DNA of 64,000 bases. Source: Gammaproteobacteria bacterium. GTDB taxonomy: Bacteria > Pseudomonadota > Gammaproteobacteria > Methylohalomonadales > Methylohalomonadaceae. The notes under the pieces are model-generated. The model did not search any database. It saw nothing but the letters and a program-made list of their open reading frames with translations, and had not been told where the DNA came from. The position numbers were made by a program, and so were the translations under genes. The DNA lies in contig JBBDSJ010000126.1 of the NCBI GenBank assembly GCA_040905025.1, positions 5,833 through 69,832 of the forward strand, read 5' to 3'. This document shows, in pieces, positions 39,042 to 55,678 of this stretch; within the stretch, counting starts at the first letter, position 1; each line of letters begins with the position of its first letter.

Positions 39042-40031
39042 ATGACTGGCCCTCACAACATCCAACTCGATACCCAGGGCCGTCTCAAGCATTTTCTTAC
39101 TACCGAAGGGTTAAGCTGCGAGCAGCTGACCGAAATCCTTGATACTGCCGAATCGTTTGCGGCGGTGGGTGACCGGCCGGTCAAGAAAGTGCCGCTACTG
39201 CGCGGCAAAACCGTCGTAAATCTGTTTTTTGAACCCAGCACCCGCACCCGCACCACTTTCGAACTGGCTGCCAAGCGTCTGTCCGCCGACGTTCTGAACC
39301 TGAATATCGAGGCCTCGGCCACGAAAAAGGGCGAGACCCTCGCCGACACCCTGCACACCCTTGAAGCCATGCATTGCGACATGTTCGTCATCCGGCATGC
39401 CGAAAGCGGCGCCGCCCATTACATCGCTCAACAGGTCGCGCCGCACGTCAGCGTCATCAATGGTGGCGATGGCAGCCATGCGCACCCGACCCAGGCCATG
39501 CTGGATATCTTTACCATGCGCCGGCACAAACCCGACCTGCGCAAACTTGTCGTGGCAATCGTCGGTGATATCACCCATTCGCGCGTCGCACGCTCGGAAA
39601 TTCATGCACTGAAAACTCTCGGTGCCGCCGAGATCCGGGTTGTCGGCCCACGTACCTTGATCCCGGCCGGGATCGAATCGCTCGGCGTGAAAGTGTTCTA
39701 TGACATGGATAGCGGTTTGAGAAATGCTGACGTTGTGATGATGCTGCGATTGCAGCGCGAACGCATGCATGGCGCATTTCTGCCCAGCGAACATGAATAC
39801 TTCCGTCGCTATGGCCTGACCATGGCGCGGCTCAAGGTGGCAAAACCGGATGTATTGGTCATGCATCCGGGGCCCATCAATCGTGGTGTTGAAATTGATT
39901 CACAGGTGGCCGATGGCCCGCACTCGGTGATCCTGCAACAGGTCAGTCATGGCATTGCCATACGCATGGCCGTCATGTCGATGACGCTGGCACATCAGGC
40001 CAGCCGCTCTGACGCCGGAGAGCCCGGCTGA
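39042..40031 (+). CDS. pyrB: aspartate carbamoyltransferase catalytic subunit
   Basis: 329 aa. Carbamoyl-phosphate and aspartate binding motifs [17 protein letters not shown] and HPGP are present. Confidence 0.95.
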
Positions 40032-41320
40032 TGCGTATCGTGATCCGTGGTGGCCGTGTGATCGATCCGGCAACACAGCTTGATGCCAGCGCCGATGTGT
40101 ATATTGCCGATGGCCGCATTGCCGGCATTGACACCGTCCCCGACTTTACTGCCGACCGCGTCATTGATGCCGGTAACATGCTGGTAATACCGGGGCTGGT
40201 GGATTTGTGTGCGCGCCTGCGTGAACCCGGCCTGGAGCACAAGGCGACCATTGCCAGCGAAACCCGCGCCGCCGCTGCGGCCGGTATTACAACATTATGC
40301 GTACCACCGGACACCGACCCGGTCATTGATACACCGGCCGTGGTCGACATGATTCAGCGCCGCAGCCGCCAGCTCGGGCGCATCAGTGTGAAAATTCTCG
40401 GCGCACTGACCCGCGGTCTTGACGGTAAACGGCTGGCGGAAATGGACGCCCTGAAAAATGCCGGTTGTATCGGTGTCAGTAATGCCCTGCAACCGATGGC
40501 CAACGCACAGGCATTGCGGCGGGCATTTGAATATGCCGTAAGTTGTGGCTTGAAAGTATATCTTTACGCTGAAGACGCGCACCTGCGCGACAGCGGCGTC
40601 GCCAGTGAAGGCGCTGTCAGTACCCGGCTGGGACTGCCCGGCATACCTGAAACCGTAGAAACAGTAGCGCTGGCACAGGCACTATTGCTGGCCGAACAAA
40701 CCGGCGCACATGTGCACTTTTGCCGCCTGAGTTCCGCCCGCGCCGTCGCCATGCTGGCCGATGCCCAGTCACGTGGCCTGGCGGTAACAGCGGACGTCGC
40801 CATTACCCATCTGCATCTGACCGACGCAGCGCTGGCACAGTACGATCCCAATTGTCATCTATTACCGCCATTGCGCAGCGAGGATGATCGACGTGCACTC
40901 TGCCGGGGCGTACAAACCGGTGTCATCAGTGCCATCTGTTCCGATCATCAGCCGCATGACGATGACGCCAAGGCCGGCCCGTTCGTGACAACACAAGCCG
41001 GCGCATCAACACTGGAACACTTGCTGCCGCTGACGCTGCAACTTGTCAGCGAGAATCATCTTGACATGACCACGGCCATCGCCGCGATCACTGCACGTGC
41101 CGCCGAAGTTCTCGGACTCAATGTGGGCAGCCTGCAGACCGGCCGCAGTGCCGATGTCTGTATCGTTGATCCGGCGGCGACATGGGTTGTCAGTGCCGAC
41201 ACGTTGCAAAGTGCCGGCAAGAACACACCGTTTCTTGGCCAGACATTGCAGGGCCGCGTGCAGCAAACACTGCGGCGGGGCCAATTCAGTTTTGATATTA
41301 ACGATTCCAGACTCGCATGA
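40031..41320 (+). CDS. pyrC': dihydroorotase-like protein, probably non-catalytic PyrC'
   Basis: 429 aa amidohydrolase fold. The metal-binding HxH position reads PGLVDLCARLREPG (no His-x-His). Its start overlaps the pyrB stop. Confidence 0.8.
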   Translation: MRIVIRGGRVIDPATQLDASADVYIADGRIAGIDTVPDFTADRVIDAGNMLVIPGLVDLCARLREPGLEHKATIASETRAAAAAGITTLCVPPDTDPVIDTPAVVDMIQRRSRQLGRISVKILGALTRGLDGKRLAEMDALKNAGCIGVSNALQPMANAQALRRAFEYAVSCGLKVYLYAEDAHLRDSGVASEGAVSTRLGLPGIPETVETVALAQALLLAEQTGAHVHFCRLSSARAVAMLADAQSRGLAVTADVAITHLHLTDAALAQYDPNCHLLPPLRSEDDRRALCRGVQTGVISAICSDHQPHDDDAKAGPFVTTQAGASTLEHLLPLTLQLVSENHLDMTTAIAAITARAAEVLGLNVGSLQTGRSADVCIVDPAATWVVSADTLQSAGKNTPFLGQTLQGRVQQTLRRGQFSFDINDSRLA

Positions 41321-42225
41321 ACGCTACTGTTGTTGACCACCCCGCGACGCGCGGCACGATTTATCCCGAAACCGGCGAAATTCTCGCGCATACCGCGCAC
41401 GCGGCCGAACAATATGTGTTGCGATTGCTGGCCCCGGAAATTGCCGCGCATGCCGAACCCGGCAGTTTTGTGCATCTGCAGGTACATCCCACCTTGCTCA
41501 TGCGCCGACCCATGTCGATCATGCGCGCTGATGCAAAAGCCGGCTGGATCGATATCCTTTACAAGGCGCACGGTGAGGGCACACGGCTGCTGGCAACACG
41601 TAAACCCGGCGAAACGATTGAGCTGATGGGGCCGATCGGCATACCGTTCAAGCTCAGTGGTTACCGGCCGCGGCCGCTGCTGATTGGCGGTGGCGTCGGC
41701 ATGCCACCGATGGTGTTTCTGGCCGAACATTTGCGCAAGCACGCAGCGGATACCCAGCCGCTGGTGATCCTTGGCTCGGAAGTACCGTTCCCGTTCAAGC
41801 CGCGGCCATCACAAATCCTGGTGCCGAACCTGCCGGCCGATGTCATCGCCTGCATGCCGTTACTGGAAGACTGGGGGATCCCGAGCCGCCTGTGCAGTCA
41901 GCAGGATTTTGCCGGTTGCCACCAGGGCTTTGTCACCGATCTGGCACGTCACTGGCTGGAAGCCATGCCGAAGCGGCAGCATGAAGAAATCGAGATATTC
42001 TGCTGCGGGCCGACACCGATGTTGGAGGCCGTCGCCTGGCTGGCACAGGAATTCGATCTGCCGTGCCAGGTGTCGATGGAAGAATACATGGCCTGCGCGG
42101 TCGGCGGCTGTGCCGGCTGCGTCGTTGAAGTCATGACCGATGCCGGCCCGAGCATGCAGCGTGTCTGCGTCGATGGACCGGTCTTTGAAGCGCACCGCGT
42201 GTTCCCGCGGCCACAACCGGCATAG
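41317..42225 (+). CDS. PyrK-like FAD/NAD(P)-binding oxidoreductase with C-terminal 2Fe-2S motif
   Basis: 302 aa. The flavin motif is RRPMSIM and the NAD fold is LLIGGGVGMPPM. CCGPTPM is present, and the Cys cluster is MACAVGGCAGC...VCVDGPVF. ATGA overlaps pyrC'. Confidence 0.75.
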   Translation: MNATVVDHPATRGTIYPETGEILAHTAHAAEQYVLRLLAPEIAAHAEPGSFVHLQVHPTLLMRRPMSIMRADAKAGWIDILYKAHGEGTRLLATRKPGETIELMGPIGIPFKLSGYRPRPLLIGGGVGMPPMVFLAEHLRKHAADTQPLVILGSEVPFPFKPRPSQILVPNLPADVIACMPLLEDWGIPSRLCSQQDFAGCHQGFVTDLARHWLEAMPKRQHEEIEIFCCGPTPMLEAVAWLAQEFDLPCQVSMEEYMACAVGGCAGCVVEVMTDAGPSMQRVCVDGPVFEAHRVFPRPQPA

Positions 42226-42243: not shown

Positions 42244-42969
42244 ATGGAGGCCATGTCGCGCCCGGTCAGTAGCCGCCAGACCGGCGTGCATCCGGAGCTG
42301 ACCCGACTGCTTGCCCGGCGCCGCGCCTGCGCGTATCGCAAACCGATCCATCCGGCCAGTGCCGCCGCATTTGCCAGCGCCGATCAGTTTTACCGTGAAT
42401 GCAAACAACCCGTCGTGCTGGATGCCGGCTGTGGCACCGGCGCAAGCAGTTATTTGCTGGCGGAACAACACCCCGACGCGATCATCATTGCTGTGGACAA
42501 ATCCGCGTATCGCCTGGCCCGGCGGCAGGGCAAACAGCATCAGCGGGTCATGCACGTACGCGCGGACTTGATCGATTTCTGGCGGCTGGCAGCAGCCAGC
42601 GGCTGGAAACTGCAACATCACTATCTGCTCTATCCGAACCCGTGGCCGAAACCGGAACATCTGGCGCGGCGCTGGCATGGCCATCCGGTATTGCCGTGGC
42701 TGCTGGCGCTGGGCGGGACGCTGGAATTGCGCTGCAACTGGCAAGTGTATGCCGAAGAATTTGCGGCGGCGCTGACATTGCTACTGCAGCGGCCAATCAG
42801 CGCTATACGCCTCGACGACCCGGGCGAACCATTGAGCCCGTTTGAGCGCAAATATACCGCCAGCGGCCATATCCTGTACTGCTGTCAGGCACAAATCCGG
42901 ATCGGGGAACGAACCCGGTGGTTACAGGAAACCAACCAGCTGGTTCCTGGCAACCAACCGCAACCATGA
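42244..42969 (+). CDS. TrmB-like SAM-dependent methyltransferase
   Basis: 241 aa. The SAM motif is VLDAGCGTGASS. LYPNPWPKPEHLARRWHGHP resembles the TrmB FPDPWxKxRHxKRR block. Confidence 0.7.
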   Translation: MEAMSRPVSSRQTGVHPELTRLLARRRACAYRKPIHPASAAAFASADQFYRECKQPVVLDAGCGTGASSYLLAEQHPDAIIIAVDKSAYRLARRQGKQHQRVMHVRADLIDFWRLAAASGWKLQHHYLLYPNPWPKPEHLARRWHGHPVLPWLLALGGTLELRCNWQVYAEEFAAALTLLLQRPISAIRLDDPGEPLSPFERKYTASGHILYCCQAQIRIGERTRWLQETNQLVPGNQPQP

Positions 42970-43053
42970 ACCAGGCAGCAACCAGCCCTGACCAAATCCG
43001 AAAATAACATATAAACTATTGTTTTTATGGGGTTCCCAAGATAATCATGAGAT

Positions 43054-43069
43054 TGGCACGGCGAATGCA
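43054..43069 (+). promoter_or_regulatory. sigma-54-type -24/-12 promoter candidate upstream of pqqA-1
   Basis: TGGCACGgcgaATGCA has exact GG-N10-GC spacing and lies about 58 nt before the pqqA ATG. It is conserved in copy 2. Confidence 0.55.
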
Positions 43070-43126
43070 TCATTAACAGCAAGGTGCAACTAAACGCCTG
43101 ACTAATTCAAACACGGAGATACGAAC

Positions 43127-43201
43127 ATGCAATGGTCAACCCCAAGCTACAATGACATCCGCTTTGGTTTCGAAGTGACGATGTACATCAACAACAAGTA
43201 A
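43127..43201 (+). CDS. pqqA: PQQ precursor peptide PqqA (24 aa), copy 1
   Basis: GGAG lies 9 nt upstream. The peptide MQWSTPSYNDIRFGFEVTMYINNK contains the conserved PqqA core FEVTMY (Glu-x3-Tyr). It is below the ORF-track size cutoff. Confidence 0.85.
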   Translation: MQWSTPSYNDIRFGFEVTMYINNK

Positions 43202-43225
43202 TCCAGTAGATTACAGTTGTTAAAC

Positions 43226-43255
43226 AAACCCCGCTCCGGCGGGGTTTTGTTTTTT
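43226..43255 (+). terminator. rho-independent terminator after pqqA-1
   Basis: ccccgc tccg gcgggg stem-loop followed by ttttgtttttt. Confidence 0.8.
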
Positions 43256-46995: not shown

Positions 46996-47151
46996 CTCGA
47001 CCCGGGCGAACCGCTGAGCCCGTTTGAGCGAAAATACATCGCCAGCAGCCATATGCTGTCTTGCTGTCTGGCACAGACCCGGGCCGAAGAACGAGCCCAA
47101 TGGTTACAGGAAACCTACCAGTTGGTTTCTGACAACCAACAACAACTATGA
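46996..47151 (+). pseudogene. 3' fragment of a TrmB-like methyltransferase gene (duplicate of 42811-42969)
   Basis: Translates to LDPGEPLSPFERKYIASSHMLSCCLAQTRAEERAQWLQETYQLV. The intact gene's end reads DDPGEPLSPFERKYTASGHILYCCQAQIRIGERTRWLQETNQLV. Nothing homologous lies upstream of 46996. Confidence 0.75.
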
Positions 47152-47238
47152 ACCAGGTGACAAACCAGATCCTTTCAAGTCCGGCAAATACCTTATAAGT
47201 CACTGTGTTTAATTAATATTCTAAAATAATCATGAAAT

Positions 47239-47254
47239 TGGCACGGTGGATGCG
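47239..47254 (+). promoter_or_regulatory. sigma-54-type -24/-12 promoter candidate upstream of pqqA-2
   Basis: TGGCACGgtggATGCG has the same spacing and the same distance to the ATG as copy 1. Confidence 0.55.
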
Positions 47255-47313
47255 TAATTGAAAGCAAAGTGCAAGTCAACACCTGCCAATTTCAACTTAG
47301 AAGAGTTATGAAC

Positions 47314-47388
47314 ATGCAATGGTCAACCCCAAGCTACAATGACAAGCGCTTTGGTTTCGAAGTGACGATGTACATCAACAACAAGTAA
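47314..47388 (+). CDS. pqqA: PQQ precursor peptide PqqA (24 aa), copy 2
   Basis: MQWSTPSYNDKRFGFEVTMYINNK differs from copy 1 only in codon 11 (ATC to AAG). Confidence 0.85.
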   Translation: MQWSTPSYNDKRFGFEVTMYINNK

Positions 47389-47412
47389 TCCAGTAGATTA
47401 CAGTTGTTAAAC

Positions 47413-47441
47413 AAACCCCGCTCCGGCGGGGTTTGTTTTTT
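47413..47441 (+). terminator. rho-independent terminator after pqqA-2
   Basis: ccccgc tccg gcgggg followed by tttgtttttt. Confidence 0.8.
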
Positions 47442-48244: not shown

Positions 48245-50314
48245 CTAGAAATTGTAACGTGCGCTCAGGCCAGCATAGGCATTAAGTTCTGGTCCGGGCT
48301 CAAAAAACCTCTGGAAGTTATCATTAATCCGAATATTTGAGAAATACTGCTTGTCAAAAACATTATTTATGCCAACAAACGGGGAAATTTCAACGTTGCC
48401 AATATTCTTGGTATAGCCGAAGCGAATATTGGAAACACCATAGCCGGCCACTTCCACCGCATTGGCGTTCTCAGCAAACAGACTGCCGACCAGCAACGTA
48501 TCCCAGACACCATAAAAGCCGGACGGGTGGTTATAGGCCACTTCGAAGAAGCCGAAGTGTTCCGGGATACCAGGCAGATTATTACCATTAAAATTTAGTT
48601 GATTATTATTGATAATCGGCTGGAAGCTCTTGTACTCAAAATCCGAGTAGGTATATGAAAACGAGGTAGTCAGGCCCGGCAACGGATTGGCACTCAACGC
48701 CAATTCAAAACCCTTGCGCTCGGTTTCACCGGCAGTAATAAAGAAATTCTGATCAATGTCCTGCGGTACCAGTTCATTTTCACCGTCAATCATGAATATC
48801 GCGGCGTCATAACTCAGTGCCCACCATTGTGGCACCACGCCCTTCACACCGATCTCGTAGTTAGTCGCCGTCAATGCGTCCAGATTCTGATTGAAGCCGC
48901 CGACACCGGCCGGATTGCCAAACTCGGTGGTGGATGGTGTTTCGAATGAAGTCGACACGTTGCCGTACAGATTCACTTCCTGAATCGGCGAATACAACAA
49001 ACCGACCATCGGACTCACCTCGTCAAATTTAACTGTGCCCGACTGGTTGCCATCAGCAAAGAATTTATCTGTGACATCAAACTCGACCTCGTCATAACGT
49101 ATACCGGTAGTCAATGTCAGCTTGTCAGTGACAAAAAATTCGTTCTGGGCAAAAAATCCCAGGCTGGAAACATTTTCGTTCTGGTTCAACGAAAGTGGTC
49201 CCTGTCGTCCACCGGCAAAATTGATAAAGTTTTGCCTATCGTCATCCTGATTTTCTATATCAAAACCGACCGTAAGTCGGTTACGATCACCGTTATAAGT
49301 GTACTGACCGCCACCACCGACAAAGAAACGCTGGAACGCCACCTGACCACGCGGAATGTTGAGAAAACCGCCTATGCCAATCGGCAGCTTGTTTTCAAAA
49401 TCACGCCAGACATAGTAATTGCGCAGGCGTATTTCATGCCTGTCACTGAATTCCTTGCGATAGACAAATCCGATTTGTTGCTGCGTTATGCTTTCACCGG
49501 CATCAAACAGCAAAGCGTTCGGTGCTGCCTGGCGCCGATCCTGCTGTACCTGTGCCAGTGTCAAACCACCCGGGTCCTGTGCCAGCGGTGAATCCAGGAT
49601 ATTAACAATGGTGGTCAGGTCCGAGGTAGCATCAATGTCATAACGAAACTTGACGTTGGCCAGGACGCTTTCGGTCTGACTGTTGCCACGATAACCATCA
49701 ATTTCATAGCGGCCAATATTGACGAGATAATTCAGCTTGTCTTTCTGGCCGCCGGCTTTCAGGTTGTATTTCTGAAAGTCATATGAACCGTAGCTGTAAC
49801 GGCCCTCGACGAAAGGCTCTTCCGGACCTTCTTCGGTAACAATATTGATTACACCACCGGATGCAGTGCCATACAGCGATGAGGCCGGACCGCGGATAAC
49901 CTCAATCCTTTCCGCCGATGCCAAATCAATCGCATCAATGCCGCCCTGACCATCGGGCAATGTTTGTGGAATGCCATCGGCAATGATCTTGATACCACGA
50001 ATGCCGAAGTCGGACCGCGCACCAAATCCGCGAATCGCTACCCGCAAGTCCTGACTGAAATTATAACGGTTCAGCATGAATACACCGGGAATGCGATTCA
50101 GCGACTCATCCAGTCCGAGTTGCTGTCGGCCCAGTTGAATATCATCCTTGTCGACAACACTGATGGCCGTTGGCACCTTGGTGGTAACGGTATCGACGCG
50201 CGGCGAAGTTACTGTTATCTCACCGAGATCTTCGGCTTTTGATTGCGCAGCGGTGTGGCCGGCAACGCTACCGAGCGTCACGCCGGCAAGCAACGCAAGC
50301 AGATGTTTGTTCAT
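48245..50314 (-). CDS. TonB-dependent outer-membrane receptor
   Basis: ATG at 50314 gives a signal peptide (MNKHLLALLAGVTLGSVAGHTAAQS). The TonB box is like ITVTS. The plug domain has NRIPGVF, IRGFG and EVIRGPASSLYG. The C-terminus is YNF. Confidence 0.9.
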   Translation of the reverse strand: MNKHLLALLAGVTLGSVAGHTAAQSKAEDLGEITVTSPRVDTVTTKVPTAISVVDKDDIQLGRQQLGLDESLNRIPGVFMLNRYNFSQDLRVAIRGFGARSDFGIRGIKIIADGIPQTLPDGQGGIDAIDLASAERIEVIRGPASSLYGTASGGVINIVTEEGPEEPFVEGRYSYGSYDFQKYNLKAGGQKDKLNYLVNIGRYEIDGYRGNSQTESVLANVKFRYDIDATSDLTTIVNILDSPLAQDPGGLTLAQVQQDRRQAAPNALLFDAGESITQQQIGFVYRKEFSDRHEIRLRNYYVWRDFENKLPIGIGGFLNIPRGQVAFQRFFVGGGGQYTYNGDRNRLTVGFDIENQDDDRQNFINFAGGRQGPLSLNQNENVSSLGFFAQNEFFVTDKLTLTTGIRYDEVEFDVTDKFFADGNQSGTVKFDEVSPMVGLLYSPIQEVNLYGNVSTSFETPSTTEFGNPAGVGGFNQNLDALTATNYEIGVKGVVPQWWALSYDAAIFMIDGENELVPQDIDQNFFITAGETERKGFELALSANPLPGLTTSFSYTYSDFEYKSFQPIINNNQLNFNGNNLPGIPEHFGFFEVAYNHPSGFYGVWDTLLVGSLFAENANAVEVAGYGVSNIRFGYTKNIGNVEISPFVGINNVFDKQYFSNIRINDNFQRFFEPGPELNAYAGLSARYNF

Positions 50315-50647
50315 GGGCAGCCCCTTCTCCACTGATTAATATAGTTATAAAAGCGCGGGTGTTGGCACAACCTGCTGGTTACCGCGAGCATCCGATCCCG
50401 GCAAGCCGTCATGCTAAACTAATAATATCTGCAAGCAAAATCTATGCCGCTAAATGCTTTAAATGATCGTGAGTTTTTTCTACGCTGAATCAAGAACGCC
50501 AAACCAGATGTTTTATGCTTTTTACGCTAAAGCGCGCGTACTTCGAACCGAACCCGGCAACAAAATCGCTACGCAGGCTTTGCTGGTCGTGGCTTATATC
50601 GCACAAACTTTCAACCACGCTGGCTGATATGGAACATATCCTGGCTG

Positions 50648-51815: not shown

Positions 51816-52165
51816 GGCGCTACCTCTTAAACTCGGAACTTGATTGACCTTACCCTAGCAGACTATGACGCGCCTGTCCGCCAACCGGCATGATCCCGGG
51901 CTCGTCATAAGCCACTATTGGCTGGATTTGTCAGTCCCTGAACCGTGCTGTATGAAACCAGCGCCTGTGGATCAGGGGCCATGGCAGCGAAGCGCTGCTG
52001 TCCGTTTTATTCTGAATTTTCAATTAGATAAAAGCGCAAACACGGCACTGGCAATGTGCCTGAAGGAACTTTGAACCAACCGGAAAACTCCCATGTGTGT
52101 TAAACTGACACATGTAGCCTTTTTTCAATAATTCATTTTTGGCTACCTGCCTTGCTTACTTGCGT

Positions 52166-53647
52166 ATGTCCACCACTGCAACATTGAACGATCGCCCGAC
52201 ACTGCGAGACGCCCTGCTTCTGTTTGTGCTCGTACCGTTTATGCTGGTCATGGGGCTGGGCGGCTGGTACAGCCTGCATGCATTGTCATTCGAAGTTGAA
52301 TCACGCATGCAGGAAGATATTGAGCTGATTGCCCGCAGTATCCGTTTGCCACTGAGTAATGCACTGGATCGCGGCAATATCCATGAAATTGAGCAGGCAC
52401 TGGATTCGGCATTCAGTATTGACCGTGTTTACGGTGTTTATGTCTATGATGAAACAGGCCAGCGAATAGCAGGCAGCGGCACCCAGCGGGCACAGGTGTC
52501 AAGCGATCGCGCAGCTGAACTGGCACTGGAACGTAACCGCCAGAGTGAGTTTGAAGAGACCGGTCGTGAAGATATTTTTTCATTTTTTCTGCCACTGACC
52601 GATATCGGCGGCCGCATCATCGGTTTATTGCAGGTTACCCGCCGTGGCAGTGATTTTCACCAGAATATCGGCCAGGTACGCCAGCATGCCCTCGTTGCCT
52701 TACTAATCACCGGTATTTTACTGACACTGATTATCTTTATCGGTCATTACCGTGCTATCGGCCGGCATCTGAGTGCCGTCGAAAACGGTCTGCGCCGGAT
52801 TGGTACGGATCAGCCAGATGCCCGGGTACCGGAACACGGGCCCAGCGAGATTCATGCGCTAAGCCAAAATATCAACAGCATGCTGGATCGTCTCGCGCAC
52901 TCACAAGACGAGATCGAACAACGTCAACAACGCGAACTGTCATTGCAATTGCGCTTGCAGGAATCGGAAAAGCTTGCTGTTATTGGCCAACTTGCCGCCG
53001 GCGTTGCGCACGAACTCGGCACACCATTAAGTACCATTGATGGTAAGGCCCAACGCGCATTGCGGAAAGACGATCTGGCGACCTCGTTAAGATCAGACCT
53101 TGAACAAATGCGCGCCGAAGTCAGGCGCATGGAATATATCATCCATCAATTGCTGGATTTCGGCCGGCACAATCCATTGCAATGCCGGCCAGTAAAATGT
53201 GTTGATCTTGTCCACACAGTAATTGATCAATGCACGTCTGAAGCAAAACAGCGCAAAATAGCTATCAACATTACCAACAGTAATAACGATCTTGAAGTTG
53301 AAGTTGATAGTGTGCGTATTGAACAGGCACTTACCAACCTCCTGCGCAATGCAATTCAGGCTGCCAGAAAGCAAGTATCGATAAACTGGCATGCAGCAGA
53401 TTCCGGAATAGTATTTTCTATTGAAGATGACGGTGCGGGTATTACTACTGAATCCTGTTCGCGATTATTTGATCCTTTTTTCACAACCAAACCGGTCGGC
53501 TCCGGTACTGGTATGGGGCTGGCTGTCGCGAAAGCCGCTATTAGCGATCATCATGGCGAGATCGATGTGGATACAAGCCCGCATCTCAGCGGCGCCCGGT
53601 TTCTGGTTCACTTACCCACACAACAACAGGCTGATGCTCATGAGTGA
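52166..53647 (+). CDS. sensor histidine kinase (NtrB-class partner of the next gene)
   Basis: There are two TM segments and a HAMP-like linker. The H-box is LAAGVAHELGTPL, the N box is LTNLLRNAIQA and the G boxes are DDGAGI and GSGTGMGLAV. Confidence 0.9.
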   Translation: MSTTATLNDRPTLRDALLLFVLVPFMLVMGLGGWYSLHALSFEVESRMQEDIELIARSIRLPLSNALDRGNIHEIEQALDSAFSIDRVYGVYVYDETGQRIAGSGTQRAQVSSDRAAELALERNRQSEFEETGREDIFSFFLPLTDIGGRIIGLLQVTRRGSDFHQNIGQVRQHALVALLITGILLTLIIFIGHYRAIGRHLSAVENGLRRIGTDQPDARVPEHGPSEIHALSQNINSMLDRLAHSQDEIEQRQQRELSLQLRLQESEKLAVIGQLAAGVAHELGTPLSTIDGKAQRALRKDDLATSLRSDLEQMRAEVRRMEYIIHQLLDFGRHNPLQCRPVKCVDLVHTVIDQCTSEAKQRKIAINITNSNNDLEVEVDSVRIEQALTNLLRNAIQAARKQVSINWHAADSGIVFSIEDDGAGITTESCSRLFDPFFTTKPVGSGTGMGLAVAKAAISDHHGEIDVDTSPHLSGARFLVHLPTQQQADAHE

Positions 53648-55040
53648 TCCGCAAGTGAATGATATCAGGGTTCTGGTAGTTGAAGATGACCAGGCATTAC
53701 GCGCTTTACTGACTGAAGAATTGAGTGACAGCGGTTACCAGGTAAGCTGTGTCGCTGATGCAGAGACCGCCTGGCAACAAATGCAACAACAACAATTTAT
53801 GCTGGTAGTCACAGATTTACGCTTGCCCGGTGCCGGCGGAATTGATTTGTTACACCAGGCGAAGCAACTCGCCGAGGTACCGGGTTTTATTATCATTACC
53901 GCGTTTGGTACCATCGAGCAGGCGGTTGATGCCCTGAAGCAGGGTGCAGATGACTTTCTGACCAAGCCATTAAAACTTGACCACCTGCAGCTTTGCGTAG
54001 CCAGAGTAATCAAGGCAAAACGTCTGCAGGCCGAAGTAAAACATTACCGGGAGCTGTTATCAGACAATGGTTTTCATGGTTTGATCGGTCGTTGTGACGC
54101 AATGCAAAAGTTATTTGAGCAAATCCGTCTTATTGCGCGTGCTGATGGCCCGGTATTGATTTACGGTGAAAGCGGCACCGGTAAGGAGCTGGTTGCCAAG
54201 GCCGTTCATCAGGAAAGCAGCCGTAACAACAAGCCGTTTATTGCTGTCAATTGTGCCGGCATCCCGCCCGAGTTGATGGAAAGCGAATTGTTTGGTCATA
54301 CGGCCGGCGCATTTACCGGCGCGCAGAAAGCACGCAAGGGGCTGTTTGCAGAAGCGGATGGCGGTAGCCTGATGCTTGACGAGATTGGTGAAATGCCACA
54401 GGAGATGCAATCCAAATTGCTACGGGTGTTACAGGACGGTGTCGTCAGACCCGTTGGCAGCAATCAGGAACACCAGCTTGATGTGCGGGTTATCGCGGCG
54501 ACCAATCGCCGGCTTGATGATGAAGTACGTGCACAAAGATTTCGTGAAGATCTTTATTATCGACTGGAAACATTCATGTTGCAGGTACCACCGTTACGGG
54601 ATCGCCAGGACGATATAGAATTATTGACTGCGCATTTTATCAATCACTATAACGTGCGGATGCAACACCAGGTCCACGGGATAAAACCGGCGGCACTGGA
54701 ACGTATCAGGGGCTATCCATTTCCGGGCAACGTCCGTGAGTTATCCAATACAATTGAACGGGCGGTCACTTTTTGTCACGACGAAGCGATTGATAGTGAA
54801 CACCTGCCCGAGCGCTTGCGGCATTCGAGCGCACCGGCCAGTGCTTTTACTGATGCCGCTATCCCGGCAAGCCTGCTGGAAGGACCGGAATTACCTACGC
54901 TGGAAACACTGGAACAACGCTATATTCAATACGTCCTTGAACAGCTTGACGGCAACAAACGCCGCGCCGCTGAACTGCTCGGCATTGGCCGGCGCACACT
55001 CTATCGCCGGCTGGGCAGCGAGGAGTCAGCAGCGGATTAA
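53640..55040 (+). CDS. sigma-54-dependent response regulator (NtrC family)
   Basis: ATG at 53640 overlaps the kinase stop. It has a receiver domain (VLVVEDD...VVTDLRLPG) and an AAA+ domain with GESGTGKE and GAFTGA. A C-terminal HTH is present (NKRRAAELLGIGRRTLYRRL). Confidence 0.95.
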   Translation: MSDPQVNDIRVLVVEDDQALRALLTEELSDSGYQVSCVADAETAWQQMQQQQFMLVVTDLRLPGAGGIDLLHQAKQLAEVPGFIIITAFGTIEQAVDALKQGADDFLTKPLKLDHLQLCVARVIKAKRLQAEVKHYRELLSDNGFHGLIGRCDAMQKLFEQIRLIARADGPVLIYGESGTGKELVAKAVHQESSRNNKPFIAVNCAGIPPELMESELFGHTAGAFTGAQKARKGLFAEADGGSLMLDEIGEMPQEMQSKLLRVLQDGVVRPVGSNQEHQLDVRVIAATNRRLDDEVRAQRFREDLYYRLETFMLQVPPLRDRQDDIELLTAHFINHYNVRMQHQVHGIKPAALERIRGYPFPGNVRELSNTIERAVTFCHDEAIDSEHLPERLRHSSAPASAFTDAAIPASLLEGPELPTLETLEQRYIQYVLEQLDGNKRRAAELLGIGRRTLYRRLGSEESAAD

Positions 55041-55188: not shown

Positions 55189-55204
55189 TGGCACAGCAAT
55201 TGCT
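55189..55204 (+). promoter_or_regulatory. sigma-54 -24/-12 promoter upstream of the DUF4168 gene
   Basis: TGGCACAgcaaTTGCT is a full consensus match (TGGCAC-N5-TTGC). It lies 61 nt before ATG 55265 and directly downstream of the NtrC-type regulator. Confidence 0.7.
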
Positions 55205-55264: not shown

Positions 55265-55678
55265 ATGAACAAACGAATTAAAGCATTTGCCCTGCCAGCC
55301 GGCTTGATAATTTTGCTGGGTGCGCCACTGACAATCGTCGCGCAACAGCAGCAGGAAGAAGGTCACCCGACGGGCAAACAAGGCATGCCATCCGAAGCTC
55401 CAACAGCAGCAGCTGAACTGGACGCTGAAACCAAGGAGAAATTTGTTACCGCATATGTGGATATCCAGCAGATTCAGGTTAAGTACACTGAACAGCTGCA
55501 ACAGGCAGATGACGAAGCCAAGGCCCGTGAAATCCAGGAAAAGGCCCAGAATGAGATGGTGCAGGCCGTCGAAGGTAGCGGCATGTCTGTCACTGAATAC
55601 AATGAAGTCGTTGCCGTGATCAGCAGTGATCCGGATCTGCGCATGGAGATTGAGGAAAAAGCCAAACAAGCGCAGTAA
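55265..55678 (+). CDS. DUF4168-like periplasmic protein
   Basis: 137 aa with a signal peptide. The repeated KFVTAYVDIQQIQ.. / VTEYNEVVAVISSDPDL pattern is typical of DUF4168. Confidence 0.7.
   Translation: MNKRIKAFALPAGLIILLGAPLTIVAQQQQEEGHPTGKQGMPSEAPTAAAELDAETKEKFVTAYVDIQQIQVKYTEQLQQADDEAKAREIQEKAQNEMVQAVEGSGMSVTEYNEVVAVISSDPDLRMEIEEKAKQAQ

Follow-up and report, generated by a model that had tools for sequence, protein, structure and literature searches.

Introduction

The peptide PqqA is the precursor from which the cofactor PQQ is made, and its gene can be present in more than one copy per genome. Methylophilaceae carry 3–12 pqqA copies (PMC4109929), and five are attributed to Methylovorus sp. 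MP688 (Ge et al. 2015, pmid 23828377, as cited in PMC9851590 and PMC11317620), a strain in which PqqA availability is rate-determining (PMC11317620). In Methylobacillus FJNU, pqqA3-5 are placed separately on the genome and differ in their expression (PMC9851590). Methylorubrum extorquens AM1 possesses the orphan genes pqqA2 and pqqA3 (PMC11317620). These examples from Methylophilaceae, Methylovorus and Methylorubrum bear out the statement, made in a preliminary description of the DNA studied here, that methylotrophs often carry several pqqA copies. Little is known of how methylotrophs set the supply of PqqA, which is reported to be rate-determining for PQQ yield.

PQQ can also be taken up from outside. 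PqqU (YncD) of E. coli is a TonB-dependent PQQ importer with a signature made of Y99 (where F or W is accepted), R304 and R365, while K274 and R536 are less conserved positions (Munder et al. 2025, PMC12124388). According to the same study, pqqU and the pqq operon are generally not syntenic, four Burkholderiales genomes being the exception (PMC12124388). Orphan pqqA genes may well have escaped the operon-based search used in that work.

In this work, we analysed a 64,000-nucleotide stretch (hereafter the window) that forms part of contig C126 in a gammaproteobacterial genome of the family Methylohalomonadaceae. The genome is a 2.5-Mb draft of 151 contigs and about 95% completeness, and the comparison set for the family consisted of this genome and three genomes of a sister genus. 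The window holds two small pqqA-like ORFs, and a third pqqA lies with pqqB, pqqC, pqqD and pqqE on another contig, C121.

Results

Identity and anatomy of the two ORFs

Both ORFs had been put forward from the letters of the window as unannotated pqqA genes of 24 codons, and both were recovered with the translations first given. They lie on the forward strand, copy 1 at 43127–43201 and copy 2 at 47314–47388, and translate to MQWSTPSYNDIRFGFEVTMYINNK and MQWSTPSYNDKRFGFEVTMYINNK, respectively. The shared peptide can be written MQWSTPSYND(I/K)RFGFEVTMYINNK, in which copy 2 has Lys for Ile at residue 11. With curated cut-offs of 21.1 bits for PF08042 and 20 bits for TIGR02107, copy 1 scored 41.5 and 45.6 bits and copy 2 scored 35.6 and 39.2 bits, that is, about twice those values. 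Both 24-residue peptides also contain the Glu-x3-Tyr core of the family (E16-V-T-M-Y20), as had been noticed previously. By these results, both ORFs are true additional pqqA genes, of a multi-copy kind already well known in methanol users.

Each copy is equipped with its own expression signals. Copy 1 is preceded by the Shine-Dalgarno sequence GGAG (43115–43118, forward strand), 8 nt before the ATG, and copy 2 by a weaker one, AGAAGAG; both stretches had been reported from the sequence and are indeed present. The strong terminators described behind the two genes were likewise recovered by a consensus scan, at 43226–43255 for copy 1 (dG −21 kcal/mol, z −3.5 vs shuffles) and at 47413–47441 for copy 2 (dG −25.1 kcal/mol, z −5.1 vs shuffles), both on the forward strand. 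Both consist of the hairpin AAACCCCGCUCCGGCGGGGUUU followed by a U-run and start 24 nt past the stop codon. For these two copies, the nearest downstream gene is on the opposite strand. With a promoter-like box, a Shine-Dalgarno sequence and a terminator of its own for each copy, the monocistronic reading proposed earlier is supported. Moreover, no pqqB, pqqC, pqqD or pqqE was found near the copies, which are flanked by a pyr operon, a methyltransferase gene, a small islet and genes for a LysE exporter and a TonB-dependent receptor. The exact peptides of copies 1 and 2 were not found in a collection of 15 billion proteins, in which a sister-genus peptide was found; their absence fits pqqA genes having been missed by gene callers.

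PQQ pathway elsewhere in the genome

The processing genes, which were to be sought elsewhere in the genome, are all on contig C121 and all score above their cut-offs: pqqB with 401 bits (cut-off 245), pqqC with 373 bits (240), pqqD with 124 bits (101) and pqqE with 564 bits (381). The third pqqA, whose peptide is MKWETPAYSDIRFGFEVTMYINNK, is located directly ahead of pqqC-pqqD-pqqE; between it and pqqC there is a strong hairpin (−33 kcal/mol) that lacks a U-run. The closest PqqC matches, about 80% identical, come from Gammaproteobacteria MAGs. The pqqB gene is about 5 kb from the third pqqA on the other strand, with moaC, moaE and H4MPT/methanofuran genes in between. The pqq cluster is thus split (C121:72000–81429), and an IS3-type transposase pair (rve, HTH_Tnp_1) lies just downstream of pqqE. 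For a dedicated pqqF, nothing in this genome exceeded the cut-off. Since pqqBCDE are present and both peptides pass the PqqA HMMs, the identification of the two ORFs as pqqA genes stands.

The genome also encodes a PQQ dehydrogenase of the methanol/ethanol family (643 bits; C6:36785–38719, reverse strand) with a D-Y-D motif. This motif marks lanthanide-dependent XoxF enzymes, and the PQQ methanol dehydrogenase of the genome is accordingly classed, from its sequence, as XoxF-type. In the sister-genus genome G003, one XoxF-like gene (loci L176/L178, G003:C4) has an in-frame TGA.

Promoters, upstream dyads and regulation

A sigma-54-type −24/−12 box precedes each of the three pqqA genes. Those of the window are at 43054–43069 for copy 1 (TGGCACGGCGAATGCA) and 47239–47254 for copy 2 (TGGCACGGTGGATGCG), both on the forward strand, and that of the third pqqA, at C121:77358, heads the pqqCDE unit. 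All three follow the pattern TTGGCACGG-N4-(A/T)(T/G)GC, with exact GG-N10-GC spacing, 55–105 nt before the ATG. TGGCACG-N4-N[TG]GC occurs at only 25 sites genome-wide on both strands, three of which are the pqqA boxes. The genome has rpoN (500 bits vs a cut-off of 277) and eight paralogous NtrC-family activators.

Farther upstream, arrays of AACCA/TGGTT half-sites were found on the forward strand at 42919–42975 for copy 1, where this candidate enhancer overlaps the end of the methyltransferase gene, and at 47101–47157 for copy 2. Every pqqA promoter of the family has such dyads about 100–160 nt upstream of the box, with an AT-rich stretch between the two. The dyads of the orphan loci read CAACCA-N6-TGGTTG and YAACCA-N2-TGGTTG, and those of the pqqACDE-linked copies YAACCAG-N5-CTGGTC; both their position and their half-sites are conserved, at the orphan loci of the three sister-genus genomes as well as at the pqqACDE-linked copies. 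Box and dyads together would be arranged as is classical for sigma-54 promoters that depend on an enhancer. In the literature searched, we found no direct link between pqqA and sigma-54 or rpoN.

It is unlikely, in our judgement, that the copies are instead transcribed from ordinary sigma-70 promoters or by read-through from the pyr and methyltransferase genes, the boxes and dyads being conserved for another reason. Read-through into copy 1 could occur, as no terminator was found between the methyltransferase stop (42969) and this gene, whereas copy 2 has no intact upstream gene from which it could be read, and nothing resembling a sigma-70 site was found ahead of the two copies. The −12 element is ATGC or TGGC at the pqqA boxes here and so departs from the sigma-54 consensus TTGC, and the box was not found in the pqq loci of Methylophaga, Methylococcaceae and Pseudomonas. 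Nevertheless, the stringent form of the box is present within 220 nt at 15 of the 21 pqqA units listed from relatives in several GTDB families (one gene enters this count twice, by way of overlapping loci); the background rate in the same loci is 0.03 per 220 nt. Copy 2 and the pqqCDE-heading copy of genome G002 are one base off the regular expression and keep the spacing. In addition, the box stays conserved while the spacer around it diverges, which speaks for the sigma-54-type promoter.

The two copies had also been described as separately regulated from the processing genes. The reading as separate transcription units is supported; separate regulation is not what the motifs suggest. Given that the pqqA heading pqqCDE has the same types of box and dyad, one activator shared by all pqqA units appears more likely than independent regulation, and co-regulation looks likely on these motifs.

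The sigma-54 response regulator encoded nearby (~53650–55040), which is syntenic in all four genomes of the family, was considered as the pqqA activator and is now a low-odds candidate only. It is disfavoured because its own sigma-54 target, the DUF4168 gene immediately downstream, has differing, TGTGC-type upstream repeats, and because it is one of eight paralogues. No enhancer-binding protein gene was found beside pqqA in loci from other families. The DUF4168 gene (55265–55678) is preceded by a consensus sigma-54 box, TGGCACAGCAATTGCT, at 55189–55204. The response regulator, of NtrC type, is encoded together with a sensor kinase (sCache/HAMP) on the forward strand (52139–55040), and in the sister genus the whole block as far as DUF4168 keeps its synteny with the pqqA locus. 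A regulon common to pqqA and xoxF was rejected as well: upstream of xoxF (C6:38900–39070) there are a AACCACGATTCTGGTT dyad (AACCA-N6-TGGTT) and a weak GG-N10-GC box, and neither is present upstream of the three sister-genus orthologues. Separately, the palindrome AACCACTTAAGTGGTT occurs at ~31082 and on at least 8 other contigs (at least 9 occurrences) and evidently belongs to a dispersed repeat family unrelated to the pqqA dyads.

Duplication of the cassette and state of copy 2

The two copies belong to a duplicated segment on the forward strand that comprises the 3' end of the methyltransferase gene, the promoter, pqqA and the terminator. The source is at 42816–43254 and the second copy at 46998–47441. 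The repeat starts within the final ~50 codons of the methyltransferase gene (42244–42969), and the part of the second copy from 46998 to ~47151 is a dead 3' fragment of this gene, which matches methyltransferase residues 192–237 at 72% (tblastn). As copy 2 carries this dead fragment, the cassette of copy 1 is taken to be the source.

The copies are 97.7% identical over CDS and 3'UTR (125/128), and in the 311 nt before the ATG their identity falls to 79% (Fisher p = 1.2e-7 for the difference). Since the pqqA 3'UTR is not common to the sister genus, recent gene conversion between the copies would be the simplest reading of this identity; selection probably acts on the coding part too, the CDS being nearly invariant across genera. 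The sole coding difference between the copies is at codon 11, where two adjacent substitutions changed ATC to AAG. Lys11 is found only in copy 2, I, L, V or M being present in all other PqqA listed (about 90 listings), and copy 2 may be a poorer substrate given this Lys at an otherwise hydrophobic position.

One could go further and regard copy 2 as a decaying or diverged duplicate, maybe still transcribed, whose I11K peptide would be a poor substrate of PqqD and PqqE, so that PQQ synthesis would be fed by copy 1 and the pqqACDE-linked copy alone. The unique Lys11, the weaker Shine-Dalgarno sequence, HMM scores below those of copy 1 and a location beside the dead methyltransferase fragment and the islet, which bears mobile-element remnants, would all agree with decay. 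On the other hand, its ORF, −24/−12 box, dyads and terminator are all intact, and it still scores far above both PqqA cut-offs. Apart from codon 11, its CDS and 3'UTR match those of copy 1 almost fully despite the 21% divergence in the flanks, and minor pqqA copies are expressed anyway in Methylovorus and Methylobacillus (PMC9851590). We therefore hold such decay or divergence of copy 2 to be quite improbable and prefer the reading in which both copies contribute precursor.

Codon-level conservation

In the 13 pqqA CDSs of this genome and the three sister-genus genomes, variable sites at codon positions 1/2/3 number 3/4/14; nine codons have synonymous variation only and five an amino-acid change. 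This pattern points to a translated gene under purifying selection, and the PqqA peptide is conserved across families. The idea that the small ORFs arose by chance, or that their product is a non-coding RNA, is effectively refuted by this codon-position pattern and by the HMM scores, and is left with next to no probability, as the Rfam istR matches over the loci (32 and 24.6 bits) are below the gathering score of 45 and fall on the terminator hairpin, no Rfam match to a known ncRNA at the pqqA loci being above gathering.

Neighbourhood and the PqqU-type receptor

The three sister-genus genomes share one gene order: TonB, AlgH, ruvX-like, pyrR, pyrB, pyrC-like, pyrK-like and then pqqA, which is present as a single gene or as a tandem pair 140–150 nt apart. 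It is followed by a convergent TonB-dependent receptor gene, with a rhomboid gene and a small ORF on the receptor strand, and further on by the sensor kinase, the sigma-54 response regulator, DUF4168, DUF485 and an SSF permease. Because this synteny is found in all three genomes, the orphan locus must be old and held in place. Compared with the sister genus, the present genome has three extra elements: the methyltransferase gene, the LysE exporter gene and, separating the two pqqA copies, a 3.7-kb islet that encodes a cupredoxin and two unknown proteins of 224 and 325 aa.

The TrmB-like methyltransferase gene (42244–42969, forward strand) is upstream of copy 1. It looks like an insertion, as it is missing from this position in the three sister-genus genomes and its best relatives, with ~50% identity, are mostly from Xanthomonadales-type genomes. 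Before it is the end of the pyr operon (40031–42225, forward strand), where a DHOase-like protein and a PyrK-like flavoprotein are encoded. In the sister genus, the pyr operon directly precedes pqqA.

The receptor gene (48245–50332, reverse strand) is convergent with the pqqA locus and is a conserved neighbour, separate from the pqqA genes. Its product matches PDB 6v81 and 9c4o over the full length with E about 1e-104 (3e-104); FhuA, the TonB receptor that comes next, reaches 5e-18. In the HMMER alignment, the signature reads F/R/R, the Y99 position holding F and both R304 and R365 being conserved, with E at the K274 position and Q at the R536 position. It scored 416.9 bits on NF041535, below the equivalog cut-off of 1200, and is therefore called PqqU-like and not filed as an equivalog. 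From the alignment and the signature, we assign it as a homologue of the PqqU/YncD-type PQQ importer. In the sister-genus genome G003, the PqqU-like gene (locus L169, G003:C2, 7919–9958) matches as three pieces in differing frames. This gene and the interrupted XoxF-like gene of the same genome may be pseudogenes or assembly errors.

Discussion

Taken as a whole, our results make it very probable that the two ORFs are functional monocistronic pqqA genes that feed PQQ synthesis. Each copy would give rise to an mRNA of ~175 nt, predicted to run from the sigma-54-type promoter to the intrinsic terminator. PqqD would bind the encoded peptide of 24 residues, within which the radical-SAM enzyme PqqE would cross-link Glu16 and Tyr20. 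Its further processing to PQQ, for use by the XoxF-type methanol dehydrogenase, would fall to PqqB, PqqC and a peptidase, whose genes are on another contig. One peptide is expected to be used for each PQQ molecule while the enzymes turn over, and extra precursor genes would therefore raise the supply of substrate. As to how the second gene came about, copy 2 was probably born by duplication of the 440-bp cassette holding copy 1, and its CDS and 3'UTR may then have been kept near-identical through gene conversion and/or selection.

A single NtrC-type activator probably turns on all three pqqA units at the same time; it would bind the AACCA/TGGTT dyads ~100–160 nt upstream of the −24/−12 box. 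A wider proposal is tentative and somewhat doubtful: the supply of PQQ precursor might be a dedicated sigma-54 regulon in this family and in several neighbouring families, in which a single, undescribed NtrC-type activator acting on AACCA-N(2-7)-TGGTT dyads fires both the orphan and the pqqCDE-heading pqqA genes. The adjacent importer gene would then make of the locus a 'PQQ economy' module, and the conserved sensor kinase and response regulator pair at 52139–55040, three genes beyond, could be its switch. If this were true, an orphan pqqA beside a PqqU-type importer would join the making and the recapture of the cofactor in one module.

In practical terms, the analysis adds two missed 75-nt genes to the annotation and confirms, for an organism that is uncultured, the capacity to produce PQQ for a methanol dehydrogenase of the lanthanide type. 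A conserved sigma-54 promoter with enhancer dyads would offer a concrete and testable handle on PqqA supply. Moreover, the repeated pairing of orphan pqqA genes with a PqqU-type importer gene bears on cofactor recapture by producers.

Compared with the canonical pqqABCDE(F) operon of Klebsiella and Pseudomonas, the system described here has in common the peptide family, the Glu-x3-Tyr core and the enzyme set of the genome. It differs in that pqqA is followed directly by pqqCDE, with pqqB ~5 kb off on the other strand, in that two further pqqA genes are on another contig, and in having no pqqF above cut-off. It is closer to the multi-copy pqqA systems of methylotrophs, which also combine several pqqA genes with single processing genes and place some copies away from pqqBCDE; the organism studied here shares methylotroph features with them (XoxF, H4MPT genes). 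In contrast, a sigma-54-type promoter with dyads and the adjacency to a PqqU-type gene were not found described for those systems in the papers searched.

With regard to the promoter, the pqqA units resemble glnAp2-type, NtrC-activated sigma-54 promoters in the GG-N10-GC box, the dyads ~100–160 nt upstream and the AT-rich interval, and the genome, like those systems, has rpoN and NtrC-family activators; the difference is in the −12 element, ATGC or TGGC here in place of TTGC. With regard to the receptor, the likeness to E. coli PqqU is in the full-length alignment and the published signature, while the receptor of the window differs by not conserving K274 and R536, by its PQQ-producing host and by the adjacent precursor genes. 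Thus, the pqqA copies themselves are ordinary, and what is less ordinary here is their conserved sigma-54-type promoter and the neighbouring PQQ-importer gene.
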